DNA from: Candidatus Fermentibacterota bacterium
Lineage (GTDB): Bacteria; JAFGKV01
Assembly (NCBI GenBank): GCA_016928395.1
Contig: JAFGKV010000057.1
Span: 1-37,623, forward strand
Direction: 5' to 3'
Length of the DNA stretch: 37,623 bases
Shown here: in pieces, positions 10,275-23,448 of the stretch
How the letters are laid out: the number at the start of each line of letters is the position of its first letter
How positions within the stretch are numbered: position 1 is the stretch's first letter
Made by a program: the position numbers and the translations under genes
The notes under the pieces: model-generated
What the model was told of the DNA's origin: nothing
Databases searched by the model: none
The model's input: the letters and a program-made list of their open reading frames with translations, nothing else

Positions 10275-12863
10275 ATGGATTACGAGAAAGGAGAGGCGCA
10301 CCGGCCGATGATTACCACGAGGACCTACACGGTCACCCCCCGATTGCCAGACGCACTCCGTCCCATCGAAGACCTGGCCTACAACCTCTGGTGGACTTGG
10401 AATCCTTCGGCTCAGGACCTGTTTCGGAGCATCGATCCCGATCTGTGGGAGGAGACCCGCCACAATCCGGTCAGACTCCTCGGCGGCGTTCCTCCCCGGA
10501 AGTTGGAGCGCCTCGCCCGCGACGAGCACTTCATGCACCGTTTGCAGCAGGTCCATGACCGGCTCACCCGATACCTGGGATACCAGACATGGTACACTCG
10601 GACCCACGGCGACACCGCCGTCGGGACCATCGCCTATTTCTCCGCCGAGTACGGGCTGCATGAGTGTCTTCCGATCTATTCAGGCGGTCTGGGGGTGCTG
10701 TCAGGGGATCATCTGAAGTCGGCGGCGGACTTGGGCCTCCCACTTATCGGCGTAGGGCTGCTGTACCGCCACGGCTACTTCGGCCAGCGCATCAACCGAG
10801 ACGGATGGCAGCAGGAATCCTATCCTGAGAATGACTTCTACACAATGCCCATTCAGCCCGTGAAAGATGACGGGGGGCGTGACATCACGGTCATCGTCGA
10901 TATTCTGGGGCGAAACGTTGAAGTCGGCGTGTGGAAGGCGAGCGTCGGCCGCGTACCCCTGTACCTCCTTGACACGAACCGAAAGGCCAATGCTACGGAA
11001 GACCGCGCCATCACGGGCGAACTCTATGGGGGCGACCAGGATACCCGCATCCGCCAGGAAATCGTGCTGGGGATCGGCGGCATGCGTGCCCTGGCCTCTT
11101 TGGGCACCATTCCTGCGGTGTGCCACATGAATGAGGGGCATTCGGCGTTCCTGGGCCTGGAGCGCATGCGAACCCTGATGCACGAGCATGAACTGAGTTT
11201 CGCCGAGGCAGTCGAGATAGTCGCGGCCTCCACCTTGTTCACCACCCACACGCCGGTGCCGGCAGGTATCGACAGCTTCCCTCCCGACTTGGTGATCCGG
11301 TACTTCGGCAGTTACATTGAAGAATTGGGAATCTCCAAAGACGAGTTCCTCAACCTTGGCCGGCGGAACGAAACCGACAACACAAGCCCGTTCAGCATGG
11401 CGGTTCTTGCCCTGCGGCTATCTGGCCACGCCAATGCGGTGAGCGCGTTGCATGGAGAGATCTCCCGCCGCATGTGGGAATCCATGTGGCCAGGAGTTCC
11501 CCGCAGTGAGATCCCCATCGGCCATATCACCAACGGCGTCCACACCAGAACCTGGCTGTCCGACGAGTTCGAGCGCCTGTATGACCTCTACTTGGACCCC
11601 ACCTGGGTGGAGAACCCCATTGACCGCCGGCCCTGGATGCGGGTCGATCGAATCCCTGACGCCGAGCTCTGGCGAAGCAAGGAGCGGCTCCGCGAGCGGC
11701 TGATCGCCTATGCACGACGAAAGTTGCGCGGCCAGCTTGAGCACCGCGGCGCCCACAAGAACATAATCCTTCAGGCCAGCGAGGTCCTGGATCCCGAAGC
11801 CCTGACCATAGGTTTCGCGCGACGATTCGCGACCTACAAGCGGGCGACCCTCATCTTCCGCGACCCCGACCGTCTCCATGCACTTCTGTCGGATCCGCAC
11901 CGGCCAGTCCAGCTACTCTTCGCAGGCAAAGCTCATCCCCGGGATCTTGAGGGCAAGGAGTTCATCCGAACCGTGGTGAAGTTCGCCAATGAGGAACGGT
12001 TCCGTCAGCATATCGTGTTTCTGGAAAACTACGACATGATGGTAGCCCGTTACATGGTCCAAGGCGTCGACGTATGGATGAACACTCCGCGGCGCCCCAT
12101 GGAGGCCAGCGGCACCAGCGGCATGAAAGTACCCATCAACGGCGGCATCAACATGAGCGTGCTGGACGGGTGGTGGTGTGAAGGACACAACGGCGAGAAC
12201 GGGTGGGCCATAGGCGCGGGCGACGAATTCGAGGATTTCGCCTACCAGGACGAGGTCGAGTCCATGGCCCTCTACGGCCTCCTGGAGGACGAGATAGTAC
12301 CGCTGTTCTACCAGCGAGGCCCCGACCGGCTTCCCCGCGACTGGATCGCCACCATGAAGAACTCCATTAAGTCCCTCTGCCCGTTCTTCAATACCAACCG
12401 GATGTTGGAGGACTACACCCAGCAATACTACCTGCCGAGCATCTTCCAGTGGAACGTACTCACCAAAGACGACATGGCCGAGGCTCGGCAGTTGAGCACG
12501 TGGCGTGAGAAAGTCCGCAACGAGTGGGATAACGTGCGGGTTCTGGGCGTCGAGGCCGCCGTAGATCAACCGATTTCCATGGGAGGAGATCTGAAGGTCA
12601 AGGCGATGGTCGTGTTAGGCGCCCTGTCGCCGTCTGATGTGGCGGTGGAACTGTACCATGGCCCGGCGGACCCTGACGGCCGTGTGATCGACGGAAGACC
12701 CATTCGTCTGAAGCCCAGCAAGGCACGTCAGGATGACGCGTGGGTGTTCACGGGCTTGAGCCCGTGCGATTTCGCCGGTCGCCACGCATTCTCCGTACGC
12801 GTGGTCCCCTGGCGGCCGGGCATGGCTCAGCCGCTGGAGATGGGCTACATGACCTGGTGGTAG
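10275..12863 (+). CDS. glgP: Alpha-glucan (glycogen/maltodextrin) phosphorylase
   Basis: LAYNLWWTW, YFSAEYG, YSGGLGVLSGDHLKSA, HMNEGH, FTTHTPVPAG, GFARRFATYKR, and the PLP-lysine motif EASGTSGMK. Start may be 10308. Confidence 0.96.
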   Translation: MDYEKGEAHRPMITTRTYTVTPRLPDALRPIEDLAYNLWWTWNPSAQDLFRSIDPDLWEETRHNPVRLLGGVPPRKLERLARDEHFMHRLQQVHDRLTRYLGYQTWYTRTHGDTAVGTIAYFSAEYGLHECLPIYSGGLGVLSGDHLKSAADLGLPLIGVGLLYRHGYFGQRINRDGWQQESYPENDFYTMPIQPVKDDGGRDITVIVDILGRNVEVGVWKASVGRVPLYLLDTNRKANATEDRAITGELYGGDQDTRIRQEIVLGIGGMRALASLGTIPAVCHMNEGHSAFLGLERMRTLMHEHELSFAEAVEIVAASTLFTTHTPVPAGIDSFPPDLVIRYFGSYIEELGISKDEFLNLGRRNETDNTSPFSMAVLALRLSGHANAVSALHGEISRRMWESMWPGVPRSEIPIGHITNGVHTRTWLSDEFERLYDLYLDPTWVENPIDRRPWMRVDRIPDAELWRSKERLRERLIAYARRKLRGQLEHRGAHKNIILQASEVLDPEALTIGFARRFATYKRATLIFRDPDRLHALLSDPHRPVQLLFAGKAHPRDLEGKEFIRTVVKFANEERFRQHIVFLENYDMMVARYMVQGVDVWMNTPRRPMEASGTSGMKVPINGGINMSVLDGWWCEGHNGENGWAIGAGDEFEDFAYQDEVESMALYGLLEDEIVPLFYQRGPDRLPRDWIATMKNSIKSLCPFFNTNRMLEDYTQQYYLPSIFQWNVLTKDDMAEARQLSTWREKVRNEWDNVRVLGVEAAVDQPISMGGDLKVKAMVVLGALSPSDVAVELYHGPADPDGRVIDGRPIRLKPSKARQDDAWVFTGLSPCDFAGRHAFSVRVVPWRPGMAQPLEMGYMTWW

Positions 12864-13178
12864 ATACCCTCACTGCGCCAGGAGTTCACGGTTCGGCGTC
12901 TCTTCGCGGCGTGTTCACGGTGAATTCTTCTGATGAACGCCAGTACCCGTGGAGGAAGGCCCCGAACCCGGGGGTCAATCGGCAGTCGGCAGTCCGGCAG
13001 TCCGGCCTGATTAGTGAACCCTGAACCCTTGTTTGAGAGAACATGCAAAGCTCATACAGATACGCGTACTCGCGCTCGAGTGCCCAGCTCGTCGATTACG
13101 ATTGCGATTACGACACCGAGAGCGAGACCGACCCCGAGCTCTCTCGCCGGTGGGCGAGCAGGGGCGAGCATGGACAGA

Positions 13179-13236
13179 GTGGGAGGGCCTTCAGGCCCGA
13201 CAGGGGTGGCGTGTCGCGGCTGAAGCCGCTCCTGCA
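13179..13236. repeat. Inverted REP-like pair (REPIN-like)
   Basis: GTGGGAGGGCCTTCAGGCCCGACA on + faces GCAGGAGCGGCTTCAGCCGCGACA on -. Each is a GTRG-like tetramer followed by a hairpin around TTCA. Confidence 0.7.
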
Positions 13237-13456
13237 GGGAAGCCGCGGCACCGCGCACCTGCAATGCGCCGTCCTCTCAACCTTGAACACCCTGAGTGCC
13301 TTCGCCGTCGGAGGCCCGACTGAACCCTGAACCCTGGAGCCTGCGAGCGAAGCGAGGCCGGCAGTCGGCAGTCGGCAGTCCGGCAGTCCGGCCTGACCCG
13401 TGAACCCTTCTTTGAGAGTCCGCGTTCAAAGGGCTCGTGGTAAACCGCCCCAGGCT

Positions 13457-13510
13457 GTAGCCACGTCGCTCTGTGACGTGTCGCCCGGCGCAGAGCGCCG
13501 CGGCTTCTAC
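13457..13510. repeat. Second inverted GTAG-type REP-like pair
   Basis: GTAGCCACGTCGCTCTGTGACG on + and GTAGAAGCCGCGGCGCTCTGCGCCG on -. Confidence 0.6.
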
Positions 13511-13731
13511 AACTCGGCGTACCCTCAACCCCGAAAGATCTGAGTGCGCCCCGCGCCGTCAGAGGTCCGACTGAATACTGAACCCTGCTATCTGAAGGAA
13601 CCGACCGCCTCATTCACCTCGTGTTCGGTGGTGGCGCCCCAGGCAAAAGGGCCATATACTGCGGCGGCTGTGACGCGCTCTTTCACGAAACATCAGATGA
13701 TACTGTATGCCTCTCTGCCACAGGAGACCCC

Positions 13732-15129
13732 ATGGCGAACCATCCCCTGGTGATCGGCCCGACTTTTGAGGAGATGCTGCATCCCTGGAAGATACCGGCT
13801 GCGATCCGCTCCCACGCGCAGCGCATGCGCACCGAAGACCCACTCGATCCCATCAACCTATTCAATATTACGTGGCGCACACCTGATGACTCCATCGCCT
13901 ACATGCTGTTGCCCAAGGAATTCACCGGCGTTGAGGCTCCCATCGCGGTGCTCTACAGCAAAGACTTCCCTACGGGCTCTCACAAGGTGGGAGCTGCCTA
14001 CTCAGTGCTGGTGGAGAAGGAACTGACGGGTGAGGTGGACCCGGCCCGGCACACTCTTGTGTGGCCATCCACAGGAAACTACGGGATCGGCGGCGCCTGG
14101 GTCGGATGCCGGATGCAGTTCGATTCACTGGTGATCTTGCCAGAGCTCATGAGCACCGAGCGATTCGACATCGTCCGCAGCTACGGCGCCCGCCTGGTAC
14201 TGACGCCGGGATGCGAGAGCAATGTCAAGGAGATCTACGACAAGTGCAAGGAACTGGTGGCCGCGGATCCCGAGAGAGTGCGCGTACTCAACCAATTCGA
14301 GGTCATCGGCAACTACCGCTTCCACTACTTCGTCACCGGCAATGCCATCATCGAGCTTGCGGAGGAACTTCACCATCGTGGGATCGGCTCGGGGCGGGTC
14401 GCAGCCTTCTGTTCCGCCATGGGCTCCGCCGGTACTATCGCCGCCGGCGACCGGCTGAAACAGGTTTTCCCCGAGACGCTGACCATAGGTCTGGAACCGA
14501 TCCAATGTCCGACCCTGATCCTCAATGGATACGGCGGCCATGATATCCAGGGCATCGGCGACAAGCATGTGACATGGATTCACAATGTGATGAACATGGA
14601 TGCCATGATGGCCATCGACGATATCGAATCCAAGCAGGGGCTTCAGCTTCTCCTCGAGTCGCCGGGCCCTGAGGTGCTGGTAAGCCGGTACGGCGTACCC
14701 GAGGACTCATTGTCCCTGATGAGAGAGATCTTCGGCATCAGCGGCGTCTGTAATGTGCTGGGCGCCATCAAGACAGCCAAGTACTACCGTTTGGGCCCCC
14801 AGGATTTGATCGTCACGGTGTGCACCGATGCCAGGGATCGTTATGGCAGCGTCATGGCACAGCTCACCGACACCTTCGGCCCCATGGACGAGACCGAAGC
14901 AGCGGTCAGGTTCGTGAGCATCTTCGGACGCCAGAAGACCGACTGGATCCAGGAGGGCGACCGGGCGACACGGCTTCGATGGCATCACTTGAAGTACTAC
15001 ACGTGGGTCGAGCAGCACGGCAAGGACATCAAGGAGCTGGATGCGCAGTTGTCCCAGGAGTACTGGGTGGCCCACCAGGAGCGAATCCAGGAGATCGACC
15101 GCCTGATTACAGGAGCCCGTGGCGCATGA
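13732..15129 (+). CDS. Fold-type II PLP-dependent enzyme (cysteine synthase/Trp synthase beta superfamily), function unknown
   Basis: FPTGSHKVGAAY (PLP lysine), PSTGNYG, MGSAGT, HDIQGIG, GISG. AGGAG precedes ATG 13732. Confidence 0.85.
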   Translation: MANHPLVIGPTFEEMLHPWKIPAAIRSHAQRMRTEDPLDPINLFNITWRTPDDSIAYMLLPKEFTGVEAPIAVLYSKDFPTGSHKVGAAYSVLVEKELTGEVDPARHTLVWPSTGNYGIGGAWVGCRMQFDSLVILPELMSTERFDIVRSYGARLVLTPGCESNVKEIYDKCKELVAADPERVRVLNQFEVIGNYRFHYFVTGNAIIELAEELHHRGIGSGRVAAFCSAMGSAGTIAAGDRLKQVFPETLTIGLEPIQCPTLILNGYGGHDIQGIGDKHVTWIHNVMNMDAMMAIDDIESKQGLQLLLESPGPEVLVSRYGVPEDSLSLMREIFGISGVCNVLGAIKTAKYYRLGPQDLIVTVCTDARDRYGSVMAQLTDTFGPMDETEAAVRFVSIFGRQKTDWIQEGDRATRLRWHHLKYYTWVEQHGKDIKELDAQLSQEYWVAHQERIQEIDRLITGARGA

Positions 15130-16832
15130 TGCCTTCAGTTGACGGAACACCTCAGATCAACGCGGCCGGCAGGCGAACGCTTCGCGTGGTGTTCAACGGC
15201 ACGCCCACCACGGCCGTCCACGGCGCCACCGTGGCCGAGCTGTTGCGCGACTACCCCCATCCTAATCCTCTGCCGCCGCTGGGAGCTCTGGTCTCCTACC
15301 GGCTTACCGGGCTTCACTATGAGCTGGTGTCGGATTGCACCGTGCACACCGTTGACTATGCCAGCAAGGGTGGCGCGTCCATCTACCGGCGCACAGCCAC
15401 CGTCATCCTCCTGGAAGCGGTCACTGAGCTCTTCCCCGGCGCAAGGGTGGAAGTCGGCCAGTCGGTGGGCCACGGCTACTTCTTCGAGATCTCCATGCCC
15501 GACGGCCGCCCCCTGTCCGAGGCCATTGTCGAAGGCGTGTGTGCCCGCATGCACGAAATCGTCAAACGAGACCTCCCCTTGGTGCCGATACGCATCTCGG
15601 TGGAAGAGGCCATCGAGGTGTTCAACGGTTCGGGCTATCCCGAAAAGGCCCGACTCCTGCAGACTCTGCCTCACTCCAAGATCTGGTGGATCGACCTGGG
15701 CGGGTACGAAGATATCCTCCACGGCCCACTGGCTCCGTCCACTGGCGTGGTCGATGTGTTTGCACTGGAAGCGTACGAGCACGGAGCCATCCTCCGGTTT
15801 CCCGATCCGAAGTTCCAGATGCGGTACTCGCGAGGCCGGCAGGACAAGTTGTTCTCCGTATTCAGGGAGACCCGGGCCTGGAATCAGGAGATCGGCATCC
15901 ACAATGTCGCCGACCTCAATGCCGCCGTGCTGCGAGATGAGACTGCCGAGGTCATCCGGGTAGCTGAGGGCTTCCAGGAGAAGAAACTGGCCAGCATCGC
16001 CGATCAGATCTCGCAGGAACGGGGCAAGATCCGGCTGGTGCTGGTGGCCGGGCCTTCCTCATCCGGGAAGACGACTTTCACCAAGCGATTGGGTGTGCAG
16101 CTCAGGGTGAACGGCCTGCGCCCCGTCGCACTCAGCATGGACAACTACTATGTCGACCGGGAGCGAACCCCCCGGAATCCTGATGGTACCTACAACTTCG
16201 AGTCGCTGGATGCCCTTGATGTAGATTACCTCAATGCCGACCTCGCACGCCTCCTGGACGGCGAGTTGGTAGAAACCCCCATCTTCTCATTCACGGAAGG
16301 GAAACGACGATCAGACAAGACAAACCGCCTTCTGCTGGGGCCGGATCACGTCCTCGTGATGGAGGGGATTCATTGCCTGAATGAGCGCATTTCCAAGGCC
16401 GTGCCCCGGGATGCGAAATTCAAGATTTATGTCTCGGCATTGACTCAGCTCATCATAGATTCCCATAGCCGCATTTTTACCTCCGATTCCCGGCTCATTC
16501 GTCGAATCGTCCGCGACCGGCTCTTCCGCGGCTATTCGGCGGAGCAGACCATCGATGGGTGGGACAGCGTACGCGCCGGAGAGAATCGCTACATCTTCCC
16601 CTTCCAGGAAGAGGCCGATGTGCTGTTCAACTCGGCGCTGGTCTACGAGAAACCCGTGCTGAAGACCTATGCGCAACGCTTCTTGCTGACCGTGCGGCGC
16701 AATACCCCCGCCTACACTGAGGCTCATCGGCTGCTGGCATTTCTGGACTACTTCGTGCCCATCTTTCCCGAGGAGGTTCCACAGAACTCCCTACTCCGGG
16801 AGTTCATCGGCGGCAGTTCATTCACGTATTGA
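15126..16832 (+). CDS. Nucleoside (uridine) kinase with N-terminal ThrRS-like domains
   Basis: N-terminus YRRTATVILLEAVTELFPG...GYFFE...DILHGPLAPSTG; P-loop AGPSSSGKTT; LSMDNYY, MEGIH, RLIRRIVRD, GENRYIFPFQE, SLLREFIGGS. ATGA overlap with the upstream gene. Confidence 0.88.
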   Translation: MMPSVDGTPQINAAGRRTLRVVFNGTPTTAVHGATVAELLRDYPHPNPLPPLGALVSYRLTGLHYELVSDCTVHTVDYASKGGASIYRRTATVILLEAVTELFPGARVEVGQSVGHGYFFEISMPDGRPLSEAIVEGVCARMHEIVKRDLPLVPIRISVEEAIEVFNGSGYPEKARLLQTLPHSKIWWIDLGGYEDILHGPLAPSTGVVDVFALEAYEHGAILRFPDPKFQMRYSRGRQDKLFSVFRETRAWNQEIGIHNVADLNAAVLRDETAEVIRVAEGFQEKKLASIADQISQERGKIRLVLVAGPSSSGKTTFTKRLGVQLRVNGLRPVALSMDNYYVDRERTPRNPDGTYNFESLDALDVDYLNADLARLLDGELVETPIFSFTEGKRRSDKTNRLLLGPDHVLVMEGIHCLNERISKAVPRDAKFKIYVSALTQLIIDSHSRIFTSDSRLIRRIVRDRLFRGYSAEQTIDGWDSVRAGENRYIFPFQEEADVLFNSALVYEKPVLKTYAQRFLLTVRRNTPAYTEAHRLLAFLDYFVPIFPEEVPQNSLLREFIGGSSFTY

Positions 16833-16872
16833 TGAGCCCGGGCCGCACGCCGCGATACTCATAGGAGGATCC

Positions 16873-18126
16873 ATGTTCGATCTGCTCTCCCCCCATGTGG
16901 CCCACCGGGAGGCCTGGCGGTGTCTGGTGTGCTGGGATGCCCCGTGCACTGCCGCCTGCCCCGTGCATGTGCCGATCCCCGAGTTCATCGCGCGGCTGCG
17001 ATCCAACGATGTGGTAGGCGCCGAGGAGCTGGTCAGGGAGGCCAACCCCCTCATCAGCACCTGCGGCGAGATTTGCCCCGACGAGCAGTATTGTTCCCGC
17101 GCCTGCGTCCTCCGTGATGCCGAAGGGCCCATCCGCGTACGCGAACTCCATCGCTTCGTCACCGCCAGCGCCCATGCGCCCTGGCCGGCATGGGCTCCCT
17201 CCAGGCCCGAACGTCTCGCCGTGGTGGGTGCCGGGCCGGCCGGCATCGCCTGCGCCCGGGAGCTGGCTGCTCTGGGATGGGGTGTGGATGTGTACGAGCG
17301 TGATGCGGCGGCCGGAGGGGTCGTCCGCCATGCTCTGGCGGTAGGGCGCTTCGCCGTGGAGCGGCTCGACAGTGATCTCGATGCCCTTCGCGGAGCTCCC
17401 ATCACGTGGCACATGGGCCACGCTGTCCCATCTTTGAGAGAGATCCTGGAATCCTACGCCGCGGTCTTCTATGCACCGGGCACCCATCGGGATGTACTCC
17501 TGGACCTTCAGGGAGAGGATACGCTGATGGTATCGGGCATGGAGTTCCTGCGGGGATGGCGTATGGGCCAAGGCCTGGATCTGACGGGAAAAGAGGTTGT
17601 GGTCGTAGGCGGCGGCAATGCCTCGCTGGACGTTGCCTTGACCGCATGCCATGCGGGCGCGGCGAGGGTCGTGCTGGTCTACCGGCGCGGGCCCCGGGAG
17701 ATGCCCGTGTGGCGCCGCGAGCTGGAGCAAGCCTCATCCAAGGGCATCAGCGTTGAGTACTATGCCCATCCGGTGGGGATCATCGCGGAAGCAGGGGTTG
17801 TGCGAGGCCTCCAGTGCCGCCGCACGAGACTCGTGGATCACGGCGGGCGCCGCCCTGTTCCCGAAGACATGGAGGGTTTCGATTTCATCCTGCCCGCAGA
17901 TGTGCTACTCCGGGCCGTGGGATCCGAGCCTGAGCGTGACGAGGATGTCGACGTGCGCTGGGGCAGCAAGGCAACGGTGCCGGTCACCGAAGCGATGGAA
18001 ACCTCCAGGCGCGGGCTGTTCGCCGGCGGCGACCTCGTGTCCCGGGAGGGTACGGTGGTGGCCGCGGCATCCCACGGCCTGCGTGCCGCCCGCGCCATCC
18101 ATCGTATGCTGGGGGGACGATCATGA
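16873..18126 (+). CDS. preT: Dihydropyrimidine dehydrogenase PreT-like subunit (GltD family, FAD and Fe-S)
   Basis: CLVCWDAPCTAACP, CGEICPDEQYCSRAC, VVGAGPAG, VVGGGNASLD, YRRG, FAGGD. AGGAGG RBS; coupled to preA. Confidence 0.85.
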   Translation: MFDLLSPHVAHREAWRCLVCWDAPCTAACPVHVPIPEFIARLRSNDVVGAEELVREANPLISTCGEICPDEQYCSRACVLRDAEGPIRVRELHRFVTASAHAPWPAWAPSRPERLAVVGAGPAGIACARELAALGWGVDVYERDAAAGGVVRHALAVGRFAVERLDSDLDALRGAPITWHMGHAVPSLREILESYAAVFYAPGTHRDVLLDLQGEDTLMVSGMEFLRGWRMGQGLDLTGKEVVVVGGGNASLDVALTACHAGAARVVLVYRRGPREMPVWRRELEQASSKGISVEYYAHPVGIIAEAGVVRGLQCRRTRLVDHGGRRPVPEDMEGFDFILPADVLLRAVGSEPERDEDVDVRWGSKATVPVTEAMETSRRGLFAGGDLVSREGTVVAAASHGLRAARAIHRMLGGRS

Positions 18127-19343
18127 GCGCGCCGGCACTGCGTCCGAGTCCCACCGTGAATCTGGAAACGGCCTTTCTCGGCCTTCGGCTGGAGAATCCC
18201 TTTCTCCTGTCGGCAGCCCCCAGCACCGATGATCTGGACATGGCTCGCCAGGGCCTGGACGCGGGCTGGGCCGGCGTAGTGCTCAAGACCACCAGCGTGG
18301 AAGGAACGCCGGTGCCATTGGCGTATCCCATGATGTCCGCCATGGAGTGGGCGGGCCGGCGGCTGGTCGGCATGGGCAATATCGATCTCATCTCAGAGCA
18401 TCACATCGACGCCGTGGAAGAGCGCGTGCGCATTCTCACCAGGGAGTTCCCCGCCAAGCTCATCGCCGCCAGTATCATGGGGTCTCGCAAGGAGGACTGG
18501 CAATCCTTGGTATGGCGCTTGCGCGATGCCGGGGTTCACCTCATTGAGTGCAGCTTCTCGTGTCCCCAGGGCTCCATGGGCGAACGTGCCGGCGCCATGG
18601 TGGCCCAATCGGCATCGGCAACCGAAAAGGTAGCCGGATGGGTCAAGGAAGCGGCGGAGCACACACCGGTGCTCATCAAGATCACTCCCCAAGTGGCGGA
18701 CGTGGTGGAGATCGCCCGGGCGGTGAAGAACGGCGGTGCAGACGGCATTACCGCGTCCAACTCCGTGCCGGCCCTCATGGGAGTCGACATCGACACGTTC
18801 GCGCCCATCCCCAGCCTCGGCGGCCTCGGCACATACTCAGGCTTCACCGGCCCGGCCATAAAGCCTCTGACCCTGCGTACCGTGGCCGAGATCGCTCGCC
18901 ATGTTTCCATCCCCATCAGCGGCAATGGGGGCATCTGCACCTGGAGCGACGCGGTGGAGCTGTTCGCCGTGGGGGCTCAGAACATCCAGATATGCTCCGC
19001 GGTGATGCATCATGGCTTCAGGATCATCGATGATCTGAAGAGCGGCCTGGCGCGGTACATGGAGCGCAAGGGCTTCACCTCAGTGAGCGACATAGTGGGC
19101 AAGGCCCTGCCGCATATCGTCGACCATGATGAGCTGCCCCGGCGCACACTACGCAGCAGAATCGATGAATCGGCCTGTCTCCGCTGCGGCGTCTGCTTCG
19201 TTGCCTGCCGTGATGGCGGCCACCAGGCCATCGCTATGCGCGAGGATCGCCTGCCCGTTGTTGATGACGAACGCTGCGTTGGCTGCGGCCTCTGCCCACT
19301 GACGTGTCCGGCCGGGTGCATCCGCATGGAGATCATCCCGTGA
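18123..19343 (+). CDS. preA: Dihydropyrimidine dehydrogenase PreA-like subunit (FMN and 2x[4Fe-4S])
   Basis: NPFLLSAAP, GWAGVVLKT, GNIDLISE, SCP catalytic Cys, KITP, GPAIKP, ISGNGGI, C-terminal CLRCGVC and CVGCGLCPLTCP. Confidence 0.88.
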   Translation: MSAPALRPSPTVNLETAFLGLRLENPFLLSAAPSTDDLDMARQGLDAGWAGVVLKTTSVEGTPVPLAYPMMSAMEWAGRRLVGMGNIDLISEHHIDAVEERVRILTREFPAKLIAASIMGSRKEDWQSLVWRLRDAGVHLIECSFSCPQGSMGERAGAMVAQSASATEKVAGWVKEAAEHTPVLIKITPQVADVVEIARAVKNGGADGITASNSVPALMGVDIDTFAPIPSLGGLGTYSGFTGPAIKPLTLRTVAEIARHVSIPISGNGGICTWSDAVELFAVGAQNIQICSAVMHHGFRIIDDLKSGLARYMERKGFTSVSDIVGKALPHIVDHDELPRRTLRSRIDESACLRCGVCFVACRDGGHQAIAMREDRLPVVDDERCVGCGLCPLTCPAGCIRMEIIP

Positions 19344-20644
19344 GGCTCTATACCGACGCCCTCATCATCACCAACGATAGCGAAGACCGCGTGATCGAAG
19401 CCGGATGCATCGGCGTGGAGGATGAGAGCATCGTCTTTGTCGGGCACACCAAAGATGCGCCTCGCGACGTCGAAGAGAGGATCAGCCTGGCTCACCGTGT
19501 GGTCATGCCGGGACTCATCGTGGCCCATACGCACCTCTACAGCTTCCTGGCCAGGGGCCTGGCGCCGTCCGTGGCTCCTGAAAACTTCGTGGGAGTGCTT
19601 GAGCATGTGTGGTGGCGGCTGGACCAGGCACTGGGGCCCGATGACGTCTACTGGAGCGCCATGGGCGGGGCTGTGTCGGCCCTGCTGCGGGGTACGACGA
19701 CCCTCATCGATCATCACGCCAGCCCGTCGTGCATCGGAGGCAGCCTGGAGAAGATCGCCATTGCCTTGGGCCAGGTCGGCATCCGAGGCGCTCTGAGCTA
19801 TGAGATCACCGACCGCCACGGCCACGAAGGCGCCATGGCGGGCATGGAGGAGAACCTGCGAGGGATGGCCCTGGCAGCCCGAAGCCCCGGGTGGCTTGCC
19901 GCACGCATGGGCCTTCACGCCTCTTTCACCCTTGATGACGCTACTTTGGATGCCGTAGCCGGGCAGGGATGTGGCGTGCATGTCCATGTTGCGGAAGACC
20001 GCGCCGACGTGACCGCCTCCGTGGAGCGATTCGGTGAGACTCCCCTGCAAAGGCTCTCCCGCCGGGGACTGCTGTCGCCGGAGAGCATCATCGTTCATGG
20101 AGTGCATTTGACCGGCGACGAAATGCAGACTTTGGCGAGTTCCAAAGCCTTTCTCGTGCACAATCCCCGGTCCAACATGAACAACGGCGTGGGTGCCGCC
20201 GACCTGGCGGCCATGGCCAGTGCCGGGATTCCCCTGGCCATAGGGACCGACGGCATGGGACCTGACCCGGGCCCGGAGGTCATGACGGCCCTAGTGCTCG
20301 TGCGTCACGAACAAGGCGACCCCGCCGCGGGGTGGGATCTCGTACGCCACGCCTACTGCGCCGGCAATGCGGAGCTGGCCTCGCGCACCTTCGGACGGAC
20401 GCTGGGCAGGCTGGAGGTGGGGGCCGAGGCTGACTTCGTCGTACGGGTATACGACCCGCCGACTCCCTTGACCCCCGCAACGTGGTGGGGCCACTTCCTG
20501 TTCGGCCTCTCGGAATCACCCGTGGACCGCGTGGTGGTGGGTGGCAGGGAGCTGGTCAGAGGCGGTGAGGCGGTATGGCTGGATGCCGAGATGATCTGGC
20601 GCGCCTGCCGCGAGCAGGCAGGCAAGTTGTGGTCGCGATGGTGA
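19340..20644 (+). CDS. ssnA: SsnA-like metal-dependent amidohydrolase
   Basis: MPGLIVAHTHLYSFLARG, WWRLDQAL, GTTTLIDHHASP, GLHASFTL, HVHVAED, HNPRSNMNNGVG, GTDG. GTG 19340 overlaps the preA stop (GTGA). Confidence 0.85.
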   Translation: MRLYTDALIITNDSEDRVIEAGCIGVEDESIVFVGHTKDAPRDVEERISLAHRVVMPGLIVAHTHLYSFLARGLAPSVAPENFVGVLEHVWWRLDQALGPDDVYWSAMGGAVSALLRGTTTLIDHHASPSCIGGSLEKIAIALGQVGIRGALSYEITDRHGHEGAMAGMEENLRGMALAARSPGWLAARMGLHASFTLDDATLDAVAGQGCGVHVHVAEDRADVTASVERFGETPLQRLSRRGLLSPESIIVHGVHLTGDEMQTLASSKAFLVHNPRSNMNNGVGAADLAAMASAGIPLAIGTDGMGPDPGPEVMTALVLVRHEQGDPAAGWDLVRHAYCAGNAELASRTFGRTLGRLEVGAEADFVVRVYDPPTPLTPATWWGHFLFGLSESPVDRVVVGGRELVRGGEAVWLDAEMIWRACREQAGKLWSRW

Positions 20645-21882
20645 GTTGCCTGGCATGCGTCACCTGCGACGCATGCTTCACCCCCGACGAACACACCATG
20701 ACGTGCCCCAGGTGTGGACCCGAGCTGGGCACTCTCGATTATCGGTTTGACCTGGATACACTCGCCACGCGGTATTCCCGTCCGGCGATCTCCGAGGGGT
20801 TGGCAACGTGGCTGCCGCTGCTACCCATCGCTGGCGCCTCGTCGCTTCCGCCTCTTCCTTTGGGACCGACGCCTTTGATCAAGGCGTCCCGGCTGGCCCG
20901 CCATCTTGGCCTCAAGGACTTCTGGTTGAAGCTGGATTCCTTTCTTCCCAGTCTCTCCCTGAAGGACCGAGCCTCGGCTTTGGCATTGGCCCAGTCGGCG
21001 GAGTGGGGGAGCACGACCATCATCGCGGCATCCACCGGCAACGCCGCCTCCTCGCTGGCGACGTTGGCGGCAGCCACGGGGCAAAGGGCGGTGCTGGTAG
21101 TGCCAGAGGATGCCCCAAGGGCGAAACTGGCGCAGATCGCGCTGCATGGCGGGGTACTGGTCCCGATTCGCGGCACCTACGACCAGGCATTCGACCTGTC
21201 CACCCGGGTTGCCGCCCTTCAGAGTTGGTACGTGCGCAGCACCGCGGTGAATCCTGTGCTGGCCGAAGGCAAGAAGACCGTGGCCATGGAGACGGCGCTG
21301 CAACTGGAGTGGCGGGTCGGCGACGTATGGTATGTGGGCGTCGGCGACGGGTGCATTCTCGGTTCGCTGTGGAAGGGGTTGTCGGAACTTCTCGCCCTGG
21401 GATGGATCGATACGATGCCTGCCCTGATCGGCGTGCAGGCGTCGGGCGCGGCACCCCTGGCCCACGCCTGGGAGTCGGGAAGACCGGTAGAGCCATGGCC
21501 TCTCACCGATACGTGTGCCGACAGCATCGCGGTGGGCCATCCCCGGGATTGGGTCAAGGCGCTCCGCGCCGCCCGAGCCAGCGGGGGAGCGATCCGGACC
21601 GTTCCGGACGAACGGATCGCACAGGCCATGCGCCTGCTGGCGGACCACGCAGGGGTCCTGGCGGAGCCCGCAGGCGCCGCATCGGTTGCCGGGGTGCTGA
21701 CCGCGCTGGAGCAGGGGCAGGTGGGCAAGTCTGACCGGGTTGTTGCGCTCATCACGGGGCATGGGCTGAAGGATCAGGCGGCTCTACGCCGCATGTTCCG
21801 GGCGCCCACACCGGTTGCCGCCACGCCCGAGGCGGTGCTGGCTGCGGCGGAGGCATGGCGGAGGAATGGAACGAGGGAATGA
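20638..21882 (+). CDS. Threonine synthase-like PLP enzyme with N-terminal CxxC...CxxC zinc ribbon
   Basis: CVTC...CPRC, GPTPL, SLKDR (PLP lysine), ASTGNAA, EGKKT, VGDG, ADSIAVG, AEPAGAA, ITGHGLKD. Confidence 0.82.
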   Translation: MVSCLACVTCDACFTPDEHTMTCPRCGPELGTLDYRFDLDTLATRYSRPAISEGLATWLPLLPIAGASSLPPLPLGPTPLIKASRLARHLGLKDFWLKLDSFLPSLSLKDRASALALAQSAEWGSTTIIAASTGNAASSLATLAAATGQRAVLVVPEDAPRAKLAQIALHGGVLVPIRGTYDQAFDLSTRVAALQSWYVRSTAVNPVLAEGKKTVAMETALQLEWRVGDVWYVGVGDGCILGSLWKGLSELLALGWIDTMPALIGVQASGAAPLAHAWESGRPVEPWPLTDTCADSIAVGHPRDWVKALRAARASGGAIRTVPDERIAQAMRLLADHAGVLAEPAGAASVAGVLTALEQGQVGKSDRVVALITGHGLKDQAALRRMFRAPTPVAATPEAVLAAAEAWRRNGTRE

Positions 21883-21948
21883 GGGATGGGTGAAAGGATG
21901 GATGAGTGGACGATTGGACGATTGGATGGATGGCTGGATGAAACGACT
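21862..21948. repeat. Degenerate ~8-bp-period purine-rich tandem repeat
   Basis: ...tggacgat tggacgat tggatgga tggctgga tgaaacga, immediately after the operon end. Confidence 0.6.
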
Positions 21949-21959
21949 GGTGCGTGAAC

Positions 21960-22150
21960 ACCCAACATCGAACGGCAGCCGGGGCACACCATGAACCGTG
22001 TATCACTCGCGCAGAGGGGCCTCCATACCTTCAACTCCGAAAGGTTTGAGCTCCCACGTACGACGAGGCACGCCTGAACCTCCTGGCCCGAACCCTCCAC
22101 GCAGCTCCCGAAGCGAGCCGCAGGGTGGTCCGTGACCTGCAGACTGTGGA
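21960..22150 (-). ncRNA. Candidate structured non-coding RNA (family not recognised)
   Basis: Two long hairpins (22092-22126 with a cUUCGg loop, and 22019-22069) whose G-U pairs form only on the minus strand. The ends can partly pair. Confidence 0.3.
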
Positions 22151-22275
22151 CGTACCGAATCTATTGCGCTGTGGGCCGGCCGAATGAATACTCCCGCGAT
22201 GCGATGGGCTGTCGCACAAAGGCGAGATGACCAACCTTCAGGCCCGGCGAGTTGCTTCAATCCAGGAGGAGAACG

Positions 22276-23448
22276 ATGACGCCACGCAAGACTGCCAAGA
22301 CGGCCGAACCGCCGGCCGGCGCGGCCCAACTGGAGATCGGTGTTCCCAAGGTCAGCCTTAGGAGCACCAAACAGGAACTGCTGGAGGCGTATCAGGAGGT
22401 CCTCTCCAGGCAGCAGGAAGATGAGCCCACTCCCCGCAAGAAGGCGGAGGCGGAGGTGAAGCGGCGCGAGGAGATCGTGGCGTCCGCCCGGGCTACCACT
22501 GTCTCGGGCATTGTGGATTCCATCGGAAGGCTCAAGCTCGATGTCTCCACAGTACTGAACGATCTGTCGCAAAAGCTCATGGCGCAGACCGAGCGTTTGG
22601 AGGAGATCGAGAATGCCATCGCCGCGGAGACTTCACGCCTGTCGCGGCTTCACGACATCGACATCGCAGCGGACACGCTGGAAGACTTGCTACGGCGTCA
22701 CAACGAGGCGGAGACCGACTTCACGCTGCGCATCGACCAGAGGCGGGCGGAAGTCGAGGAGGCCTTAACCACGGCCAAGGCTGAGTTCGAGGAGTGGGTG
22801 GCAGCGACGCGGGAGCAGTTGGAAGAGGAGATGGCGACCACCCGTGAGGCATGGGAGCGGGAGCGTCAGCTCCACGAGCAAGACATGAAGGAACGCAACG
22901 AGAGGCTCAAGCGCGAGCGGGAACGCGAGGCCGAGGAGTACGCCTACGGACTGAAGCTGAATCGGCAGAGGGCTGACAATGAACACGCAGCCCGACTGGC
23001 TGCGCAGGAAAAAGAACTGGCCGCGGCGAGGGAGGCCCACCAGAGGGAGTACGCCGATCGAGAGGCGTCCCTGGAGCGACGGGAAGCGGAGTTGGCCGAC
23101 CTGCGGGCCCAAGTGGAGTCTTTCCCCAAGCAGCTGGACAAAGCGGTTACGGAAGCCCGCGCATTCGTCAAGAAGGAAGCTGAGAAGGAGGCAAAGACTG
23201 CCTGGGACCTGCGCGAGAGAGAGATCCTTGGAGAGCGCGAGGTGGCGCGCCTGAGAATCGAATCCCTGGAGGCAAAGGTGAAGGAGCAGGCCGCACGCGT
23301 GACCGAGTTGAACCGTGCCCTGGATGCCGCCTCCACCAAGGTGCAGGAGATCGCTGTCAAGGCCATAGAGGGCGCCGAAGGCCGCAAGGCGCTCTCCGCG
23401 GTAAACGAGATCGCCCTGGAGCAGGCGAAGCGTCCGAGGGACAGCTGA
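22276..23448 (+). CDS. Long coiled-coil protein of unknown function
   Basis: AGGAGG before ATG 22276; Glu/Arg/Ala-rich heptad composition; STKQELLEAY, REREAEEYAY, FPKQLDKAV, VQEIAVKAIEG. Confidence 0.8.
   Translation: MTPRKTAKTAEPPAGAAQLEIGVPKVSLRSTKQELLEAYQEVLSRQQEDEPTPRKKAEAEVKRREEIVASARATTVSGIVDSIGRLKLDVSTVLNDLSQKLMAQTERLEEIENAIAAETSRLSRLHDIDIAADTLEDLLRRHNEAETDFTLRIDQRRAEVEEALTTAKAEFEEWVAATREQLEEEMATTREAWERERQLHEQDMKERNERLKREREREAEEYAYGLKLNRQRADNEHAARLAAQEKELAAAREAHQREYADREASLERREAELADLRAQVESFPKQLDKAVTEARAFVKKEAEKEAKTAWDLREREILGEREVARLRIESLEAKVKEQAARVTELNRALDAASTKVQEIAVKAIEGAEGRKALSAVNEIALEQAKRPRDS

Follow-up and report, generated by a model that had tools for sequence, protein, structure and literature searches.

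The anaerobic pathway of urate degradation has been described, for E. coli and clostridia, in two preprints of 2025 (Li et al., 10.1101/2025.05.19.654654; Dodd laboratory, 10.1101/2025.04.24.650524). According to the parts of these texts available to us, XdhD reduces urate to 2,8-dioxopurine (10.1101/2025.05.19.654654; 10.1101/2025.04.24.650524), and the ring is then reduced by YgfK or, in C. difficile, by UacX, a homologue of PreA/PydA (10.1101/2025.05.19.654654). HyuA opens the hydantoin, YgeW (or UacY) and YgeY remove the ureido groups, and YgeX converts 2,3-diaminopropionate to pyruvate and ammonia (10.1101/2025.05.19.654654; 10.1101/2025.04.24.650524). A protein of the dihydroorotate (DHO) dehydrogenase family, "X1", encoded beside ssnA, ygeW, ygeY, hyuA and xdh, was noted in 2013 (Barba et al., PMC4016543, in the part of that text available to us). 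Here we analyze a 37,623-nucleotide stretch of DNA (the window), contig JAFGKV010000057.1 of a Candidatus Fermentibacterota genome, in which positions 13732-21882 hold a six-gene operon coding for a split reductase (PreT and PreA), an SsnA-like amidohydrolase, two fold-type II pyridoxal phosphate (PLP) enzymes, one CysK-like (PLP1) and one ThrC-like, and a long uridine-kinase-like protein. We consider it rather likely that this operon encodes the core of a variant reductive (2,8-dioxopurine) pathway of urate/purine degradation.

The E. coli K-12 locus (ygeW-ygeX-ygeY-hyuA-yqeA...ygfK-ssnA-ygfM-xdhD) resembles the one described here in that SsnA comes directly after its reductase, and our genome likewise has XdhD/YgfM-like, YgeY, carbamoyltransferase, carbamate kinase and hydantoinase-like genes of the E. 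coli uricolytic set. The two differ in that a split PreT and PreA stand here in place of the 1032-aa YgfK, YgeX is missing, two other fold-type II PLP enzymes lie in the operon, a kinase is inserted, and the rest of the set is dispersed. The C. difficile UacX cluster and the X1 neighbourhood, as far as the available parts of the sources describe them, also pair a PF01180 reductase with SsnA; however, UacX is without an FAD domain and is probably ferredoxin-dependent, whereas the PreA studied here is coupled to a PreT with FAD/NAD(P) and iron-sulfur domains. C. difficile also keeps YgeX, going by the description of shared genes in the available text of Li et al., and our genome is without it. 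The NAD-dependent dihydropyrimidine dehydrogenase PreT/PreA of E. coli has the same two-subunit architecture and domain set, but the PreA proteins are 37% identical and the pair is coupled here to SsnA, not to pyrimidine genes. What is new in this locus is its setting in a candidate phylum of three species, the direct coupling of a split PreTA to SsnA and a ThrC-like enzyme, a missing threonine pathway, and the dispersal of the remaining pathway genes.

The window is contig C87 of a metagenome-assembled genome (MAG) of 4.79 Mb in 343 contigs (G000; 94% complete, 3% contamination) in which a search retrieved no assembled 16S gene, and the phylum is represented by three species in the collection that we searched (G000, G001 and G002). 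Six co-oriented open reading frames (ORFs) fill the operon (Table 1), with overlapping start and stop codons at four of the five junctions. The PLP1/kinase and PreT/PreA junctions are ATGA overlaps, the PreA stop overlaps the SsnA start in a GTGA, and SsnA and the ThrC-like gene overlap by 7 or 4 nt in an ATGGTGA; only the kinase and PreT are separated, by a 40-nt spacer with an AGGAGG ahead of the PreT ATG. The likely start of SsnA is the GTG at 19340, rather than the longest-ORF start at 19304, and the ThrC-like gene likely begins at 20638 (ATG) or 20641 (GTG), rather than at 20575. The gene order and overlaps given in an initial annotation, which was made from the sequence alone, are borne out by these ORFs and junction sequences, and its gene names by the domain and family assignments reported below. 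All six genes are found in the same order in G001; in G002, PLP1 is missing at the locus, and a PLP1 of another subfamily (45% identity) lies on another contig.

The recurrence of this gene set outside the phylum was examined by scanning one genome per species with an SsnA alignment. We took the loci of the best 80 of at least 598 matches, which come from many phyla and whose SsnA homologues are 35-45% identical to that of the window, and scored in them the six genes of the window and the E. coli cluster proteins (tblastn, E<=1e-10, >=50% query coverage). PreA-like genes (>=30% identity) were found near SsnA in 32 of the 80 loci and YgfK-like genes in 27, and 57 loci have at least one of these two reductase types; a Mo-hydroxylase subunit was near SsnA in 27 loci, ThrC-like genes in 18, YgeY in 16, PLP1 in 8 and YgeX in 5. 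YgeX occurred together with ThrC-like or PLP1 in none of the 80 loci. Among the 20 loci that contain any of ygeY, ygeW, yqeA or hyuA, 9 have the ThrC-like gene, 8 have PLP1, 5 have YgeX, and 3 have none of these. In one locus (L028) the genes follow each other on one strand as hyuA, ygeY, carbamoyltransferase, yqeA (carbamate kinase), PreT, PreA, SsnA and ThrC-like.

The same association appears when whole genomes are compared. In a set of 401 genomes, comprising G000 and 400 relatives (mostly one to three per family), PLP1 (E<=1e-40) was present in 71 and SsnA (E<=1e-50) in 75; the two coincided in 63 genomes, 8 had PLP1 without SsnA, 12 had SsnA without PLP1, and 318 had neither. Genes of the ThrC-like type (E<=1e-72) were detected in 54 genomes, 52 of them SsnA-positive, and SsnA, PLP1 and ThrC-like occurred together in 46. 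YgeX passed its cut-off in 12 of the 401 genomes, of which 7 carry SsnA, and none of these 7 has a top-tier ThrC-like gene. In 26 of the 52 genomes the ThrC-like gene is no more than 20 kb from SsnA, and the same holds for PLP1 in 19 of the 63. When about 7 kb were inspected on each side of 20 top-tier ThrC-like genes, SsnA was near 12, a carbamoyltransferase, carbamate kinase, hydantoinase or Xdh gene was near another 4, and the last 4, one of them on a 4.8-kb contig, had no pathway neighbour. For PLP1 loci outside the genus, pathway genes were found within a 1.5-kb flank in 11 of 28. The variant with the PLP pair is widespread and not peculiar to G000, and both PLP enzymes repeatedly keep company with SsnA across many phyla.

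The 'YgeX' marker of the gene neighbourhood network of Li et al. is PF00291, according to the available part of that preprint (10.1101/2025.05.19.654654), and would therefore lump the ThrC-like and PLP1 enzymes unnoticed under 'YgeX'. The part of the Dodd laboratory preprint available as text has no mention of threonine, cysteine synthase, pyridoxal, PreT, PreA or dihydropyrimidine (10.1101/2025.04.24.650524). Among the papers listed by our searches, we found none that places these two PLP families in the urate pathway; supplementary tables, which lie outside this search, could bear on the point.

The ThrC-like protein matches Pfam PALP with 232 bits. It barely passes the threonine synthase model TIGR00260 (167.6 bits, cut-off 167.1), fails NF006050 (247 bits, cut-off 303), and reaches 48.7 bits against the YgeX model NF006058 (cut-off 276); its closest match in the PDB is T. 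thermophilus ThrC (1UIM, 183 bits). With class-I threonine synthases (1UIM and B. subtilis 6CGQ) it shares the fold family and the PLP-lysine motif S-x-K-D-R, but it has an extra Cys-rich N-terminus, K-D-R-A-S in place of K-D-R-G-M, S-T-G-N-A in place of S-T-G-N-T, and has lost the Arg of N-P-x-R. The Cys pattern makes the N-terminal segment a putative zinc ribbon or zinc-ribbon-like element; no Pfam family matches this segment. All three ThrC motifs (K-D-R-G-M, S-T-G-N-T and N-S-x-N-P-x-R) are altered both in the window protein and in every SsnA-linked homologue: in our alignment, 44 of 44 SsnA-linked ThrC-like sequences read K-D-R-A-[ST], S-[TS]-G-N-A and N-P-x-[LT and others]-x-E-G-K-K, with no Arg. 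Class-I ThrC paralogues, 1UIM and E. coli ThrC have instead an S-T-G-N-T-like motif and an Arg three residues past N-P/N-I, and all but the E. coli protein have K-D-R-G-M. We take the Arg of the N-P-x-R motif to be the one that binds the phosphate of O-phosphohomoserine, a role for which we found no confirming paper.

In a quick IQ-TREE phylogeny of 67 rows, a branch with an SH-like approximate likelihood ratio (SH-aLRT) support of 99 separates the 40 SsnA-linked rows (20 chosen by similarity and 19 by position beside SsnA) from the 27 others, among which are E. coli ThrC and two ThrC-type clades. A second, ordinary ThrC paralogue is present in three of five other carriers. In G000 the ThrC-like protein is the only ThrC homologue; neither E. 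coli ThrC nor the dehydrogenase half of ThrA finds a match in this genome, and no thrB over its cut-off was found in the genome search. The homoserine dehydrogenase domain PF00742 was absent from all three genomes of the phylum and present in 14 of 14 controls. These absences of homoserine dehydrogenase, thrB and a second ThrC are bounded by the completeness of the MAGs of the phylum, which is 82-98%. Taken together, the changed motifs, the separate clade, the ordinary paralogues in other genomes and the lack of homoserine dehydrogenase and thrB indicate that the ThrC-like protein is not a housekeeping threonine synthase, an identity that the initial annotation had named as one that would refute its reading. 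It is most probably a functional stand-in for YgeX, or a lyase for a related 3-substituted alanine.

A further ThrC-type clade, outside both the SsnA-linked and the class-I clades, was seen beside a class-I ThrC in two unrelated genomes (L172, G305:C1:404000-407700, and L183, G151:C11:346900-350600). This third clade is characterized by K-D-R-V-V and S-T-G-N-L-A and by a length of ~415 aa.

PLP1 is more remote from known families. It matches Pfam PALP with 68 bits and the cysK/cysKM models with 121.8-122.5 bits, about a third of their cut-offs (344-351); no curated family was passed, the YgeX model (NF006058) gave no match, and the ESM Atlas offered generic names only. An AlphaFold (AF2) model with a mean confidence (pLDDT) of 91.8 has a core of the CysK/beta-substituted-alanine-synthase type with helical additions of ~70 N-terminal and ~150 C-terminal residues, and the best PDB folds retrieved by Foldseek are CysK and beta-cyanoalanine synthase (target-normalised TM-score ~0.8, 22-30% identity). 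PLP1 shares its fold, with a Lys in the expected place, with CysK, beta-cyanoalanine synthase and the O-ureido-L-serine synthase DcsD, but reads H-K-V-G after the lysine position instead of K-D-R and is 22-30% identical to enzymes of this type. An alignment of 30 homologues has a mean column identity of 61% and keeps Lys85 throughout; its position within the motif would make this residue the PLP lysine. PLP1 is single-copy in every carrier genome and conserved over its full length, with 41-68% identity across phyla. The CysK-type fold argues for a chemistry that proceeds via an aminoacrylate intermediate. We also considered PLP1 as the direct substitute for YgeX; this is unsupported, since four of the seven YgeX-positive SsnA genomes carry PLP1 as well.

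Two subfamilies of PLP1 exist within the phylum: a ~465-aa form in G000 and G001, which is 59-68% identical to the PLP1 of G024, G091, G198, G227, G251, G349 and G397, and a ~489-aa form in G002 (L134, G002:C159:836-2302), with 45% identity between the two. This suggests replacement or transfer of PLP1 within the phylum. The C-terminal motif of PLP1 that is conserved best (14983-15024) is matched at 90-95% by short contigs of two sediment RNA libraries and two DNA runs, and the sequences diverge beyond it; these libraries thus contain PLP1 homologues of other organisms.

PreT consists of an N-terminal domain for two [4Fe-4S] clusters (Fer4_20) and an FAD/NAD(P)-binding domain of the GltD family according to Pfam, and family models match it to the corresponding parts of YgfK, AegA and YgfT. 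PreA combines an FMN-type DHO-dehydrogenase barrel (DHO_dh) with a C-terminal 2x[4Fe-4S] domain (Fer4_21); it passes NF006183 with 426.8 bits (cut-off 335), and its PreT partner, with the expected domains, is present. The PreA of the window is 55-56% identical to SsnA-adjacent homologues in L028 and L065 and 62% in L152 and L153, and its own context is SsnA, not pyrimidine genes. A plasmid search with PreA (tblastn) returned generic PreA matches only, at 39-41% identity. In the 80 SsnA loci, PreT/YgfT-like genes or domains were found in 25, and the reductases that adjoin SsnA in the 32 loci counted above are either a split PreT/PreA or a PreT-PreA fusion of ~830 aa. Many of the PreA-like genes are such fusions and end 12-190 nt from SsnA. 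The fusion is a third reductase architecture beside YgfK and the split form, and was seen just upstream of SsnA in many Anaerolineae-type loci (L045, L049, L051, L054, L057, L066 and others). We therefore find the idea of the initial annotation that PreTA takes the place of YgfK well founded, given how often each occurs beside SsnA, though its outline is already in print for X1 and UacX. In the scheme that we propose, PreT would be the electron-input subunit of a heterocycle reductase, and PreA its catalytic subunit, at which the substrate's pyrimidine ring is reduced, as the equivalent of YgfK/UacX.

The SsnA-like protein is 37% identical to E. coli SsnA and scores 412.1 bits against NF005540 (cut-off 444) and 405.1 against TIGR03314 (cut-off 455.5), with the next family at 156. 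SsnA is thus the best family by ~250 bits, though the scores stay below both curated cut-offs, and the assignment of the protein to the anaerobic urate cluster, made in the initial annotation, agrees with this far-best match and with the identity to E. coli SsnA. In an alignment of nine sequences that includes E. coli SsnA, the HxH pair H63/H65 and further His and Asp columns are invariant; which of these columns are the metal ligands follows from general knowledge of the amidohydrolase superfamily. We propose that the protein may be a ring-opening hydrolase for a reduced heterocycle.

For every other member of the urate gene set except YgeX, a candidate was found elsewhere in the genome (Table 1), with the carbamoyltransferase and the hydantoinase-like protein below curated cut-offs. 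YgeX was found in none of the three genomes of the phylum, and YgeY exceeds its cut-off in all three. The initial annotation had suggested that the PLP enzymes replace the steps of both YgeW and YgeX. The part concerning YgeX is in keeping with the absence of this gene from G000; the part concerning YgeW is unlikely, since a carbamoyltransferase 46-52% identical to cluster-linked ones, a carbamate kinase and YgeY are all kept.

Table 1. Genes of the operon and its neighbours in the window (C87), and candidates for the remaining pathway steps on other contigs of the same genome.
Feature	Contig	Position	Strand	Assignment or similarity
PLP1 (CysK-like PLP enzyme, 465 aa)	C87	13732..15129	+	Pfam PALP
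Long uridine-kinase-like protein (568 aa)	C87	15126..16832	+	Pfam PRK
PreT (417 aa)	C87	16873..18126	+	Pfam Fer4_20 + Pyr_redox_2
PreA (406 aa)	C87	18123..19343	+	NF006183; Pfam DHO_dh + Fer4_21
SsnA-like amidohydrolase (434 aa from GTG 19340)	C87	19340..20644	+	NF005540/TIGR03314 best families
ThrC-like PLP enzyme (414 aa)	C87	20638..21882	+	Pfam PALP
XdhD-like Mo/Fe-S subunit and FAD subunit	C97			39% to E. coli XdhD; 50-57% to cluster-linked homologues
YgeY	C293			487 bits (cut-off 321); 44-48% to cluster-linked homologues
Carbamate kinase	C293			44% identical to YqeA
Carbamoyltransferase, behind sigma-54 regulator	C93			46-52% to cluster-linked; below YgeW and ornithine carbamoyltransferase (OTC) cut-offs
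Dihydropyrimidinase-like protein (hydantoinase candidate)	C218			TIGR02033 341 bits vs cut-off 393
Alpha-glucan phosphorylase	C87	10275-12863	+	Pfam DUF3417 + Phosphorylase
ORF with RAMP-superfamily domain	C87	24106-25230	+	Pfam RAMP superfamily
Very long ORF (1068 aa)	C87	28050-31256	-	
Very long ORF (1376 aa)	C87	32036-36166	-	

SelD genes, one of which contains an in-frame TGA, are present in each genome of the phylum, which fits selenium-dependent Mo hydroxylases. One SelD of G000 (C199:54349-55278) lies in a 783-aa open frame that is probably a fusion, a few kb from an Xdh-type set (C199:47516-51071). The other (C22:4999-5931) is the copy with the in-frame TGA and is probably a selenocysteine SelD; the same SelD pair is found in G001 and G002. 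Fold-type II PLP proteins are few in G000: three are detectable, namely the two of the operon and a DcyD/ACC-deaminase-like gene split over C311 and C183, and TrpB, IlvA, CysK and CysM have no match in this genome. This suggests several amino-acid auxotrophies in the lineage, or alternative enzymes of another kind.

The kinase stands apart from the other five genes. It exceeds the cut-off of Pfam PRK at residues 307-503 and scores 91 bits against the udk models TIGR00235/NF004018 (cut-offs 220 and 180); its PDB matches are uridine kinases (residues 305-501) and the N-terminal domain of threonyl-tRNA synthetase (ThrRS; residues 69-207), whose editing region its N-terminal part resembles. It is the only copy in G000 and occupies the operon position in all three genomes of the phylum, and was found nowhere else in the sample. 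None of the 80 SsnA loci has the kinase near SsnA, and among the PLP1 loci inspected only that of G001 has it beside PLP1. The initial annotation had counted a nucleoside kinase in the gene set, and this membership fails outside the phylum; the gene is probably a passenger or a housekeeping nucleoside kinase, inserted in this lineage.

The operon is flanked by unrelated genes, with the alpha-glucan phosphorylase upstream and a coiled-coil protein and the RAMP protein downstream; the RAMP ORF may belong to a type III CRISPR-Cas system or a related module. In G001 and G002, ORFs of matching size suggest that the phosphorylase directly precedes the operon there too, so synteny in the phylum reaches past the functional unit. 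Rfam gave no match in the window at gathering score and none in 12700-13900, which includes the 870-nt upstream gap, at E<=1; a riboswitch or RNA leader was rejected on this ground. A promoter and terminator scan of 12800-22400 returned sites no more numerous than in shuffled sequences. To look for expression, we compared the stretch with contigs from two RNA libraries of the study to which the probable source sample belongs. One contig of 221 nt matches 16826-17046 without differences, covering the kinase-PreT spacer and the 5' end of PreT; it reaches 7 nt into the kinase, may represent DNA carry-over, and shows no transcript structure. The remaining pieces, of 18-46 nt and with 90-99% likeness to conserved motifs, each lie only partly on the stretch and probably derive from other organisms.

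The substrates and all of the chemistry, including the beta-elimination, are what we infer for a pathway that would run as follows. As a split iron-sulfur flavoprotein drawing on NAD(P)H, PreT/PreA would play the part of E. coli YgfK and C. difficile UacX and reduce an oxidised purine in its pyrimidine ring; this purine is most likely 2,8-dioxopurine, supplied by the XdhD-like enzyme whose gene lies elsewhere in the genome. SsnA would open the reduced six-membered ring by hydrolysis, and the ureido groups would be trimmed by the hydantoinase-like protein, the carbamoyltransferase with carbamate kinase, and YgeY, all encoded on other contigs. For the missing YgeX, the ThrC-like enzyme would convert a 3-substituted alanine, which may be 2,3-diaminopropionate or a ureido-alanine, to pyruvate and ammonia via aminoacrylate. 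PLP1 may carry out a second beta-elimination or a beta-replacement on such an intermediate, and the long uridine kinase, co-transcribed by its position, would remain outside the conserved system. More tentatively, and with somewhat less confidence than doubt, we entertain the idea that each of the two PLP enzymes represents a new family and that together they form an undescribed terminal branch of anaerobic purine degradation, which replaces YgeX in most environmental carriers of SsnA. One possibility within this idea is a D-specific diaminopropionate or ureido-alanine lyase together with a beta-replacement enzyme that salvages C3 as serine or cysteine.

Several observations weigh against assigning the operon to urate/purine degradation. 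The remaining pathway genes are scattered over at least four contigs among unrelated neighbours, and E. coli queries (E<=1e-8) detected no XanQ/UacT-type permease for urate or xanthine. The scores of SsnA under both curated cut-offs leave room for a substrate other than that of the E. coli enzyme, and PreA passes an equivalog model for uracil/thymine dehydrogenases in a genome with a dihydropyrimidinase-like gene on C218, which makes a pyrimidine substrate conceivable. The ThrC-like matches form a continuum with threonine synthases, and the 1e-72 threshold was set after the list had been viewed. One genome (G016) holds both a cluster-type ThrC-like gene and YgeX, so that their exclusion is not strict, and the co-occurrence of PLP1 with YgeX noted above speaks against PLP1 as a simple substitute for YgeX. 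Since the 401 genomes are interrelated, the Fisher significance of the co-occurrence is overstated; the pattern still spans many families. The synteny among the three genomes of the phylum says little alone, since the unrelated phosphorylase is kept too.

Some of these points would be accommodated if the same enzyme logic acted on an N-heterocycle other than urate/2,8-dioxopurine, such as another oxidised purine or a substituted pyrimidine, with the PLP pair reflecting an end product other than 2,3-diaminopropionate. The low SsnA scores and the mere 35-45% identity of the SsnA homologues of the 80 loci to that of the window would fit such a substrate, as would the rarity of YgeX among the SsnA genomes (7 of 75) beside the commonness of the PLP pair in the environmental sample, and the lack of a counterpart of PLP1 in the E. 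coli pathway as described in the available parts of the published accounts. However, the XdhD-like protein, a YgeY over its cut-off, the carbamoyltransferase and the carbamate kinase match the published urate set, and the near-exclusion of YgeX and the ThrC-like gene fits a like-for-like swap; we therefore regard another heterocycle as unlikely.

Still less probable, in our judgement, is reductive pyrimidine catabolism, in which PreTA would act on uracil or thymine, SsnA or the C218 protein would open dihydrouracil, and the PLP enzymes and the kinase would serve pyrimidine nucleoside salvage or unrelated amino-acid metabolism. The PreA equivalog match, the dihydropyrimidinase-like gene of the genome and the uridine-kinase-like gene in the operon are in its favour, but the kinase is absent from all 80 SsnA loci, and PreA shares 55-62% identity with SsnA-adjacent homologues but 37% with the E. 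coli protein. Moreover, a search for TIGR01879, the M20-type N-carbamoyl-amino-acid amidohydrolase, gave no match in the phylum's three genomes, and SsnA, PLP1 and the ThrC-like gene travel with Xdh, YgeY and carbamoyltransferase genes across phyla. We also know of no role of fold-type II PLP enzymes on beta-alanine or beta-ureidopropionate.

That a housekeeping threonine synthase, a cysteine synthase and a uridine kinase came to lie by chance beside a PreTA-SsnA module, with no shared pathway, is the least credible explanation: the ThrC-like protein, PLP1 and the kinase are each the sole homologue of their kind in the genome, TIGR00260 is just passed and synteny in the phylum includes the unrelated phosphorylase, but the genes overlap at four of five junctions, no homoserine dehydrogenase or thrB would feed a threonine synthase, the genomes with ThrC-like (52 of 54) and PLP1 (63 of 71) track SsnA and not general biosynthesis, the cysK models are far from reached, and the ThrC-like clade is separate from ThrC.

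If the operon is indeed the core of a variant urate/purine pathway, its meaning extends beyond this genome. In the environmental genomes sampled, YgeX, the last enzyme of the described pathway, is present in 7 of the 75 that carry SsnA; instead, SsnA is accompanied by PLP1 in 63 and by the ThrC-like enzyme in at least 52 of these 75. Public databases name the two PLP enzymes cysteine synthase and threonine synthase, a labelling that biases predictions of amino-acid prototrophy and conceals purine fermentation in sediments and soils. Once the substrates of both PLP enzymes are known, the pathway would be complete for most of the organisms that carry it, and two enzyme functions would be gained. 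For the lineage studied here, these results suggest a way of life that includes the fermentation of purines or urate.

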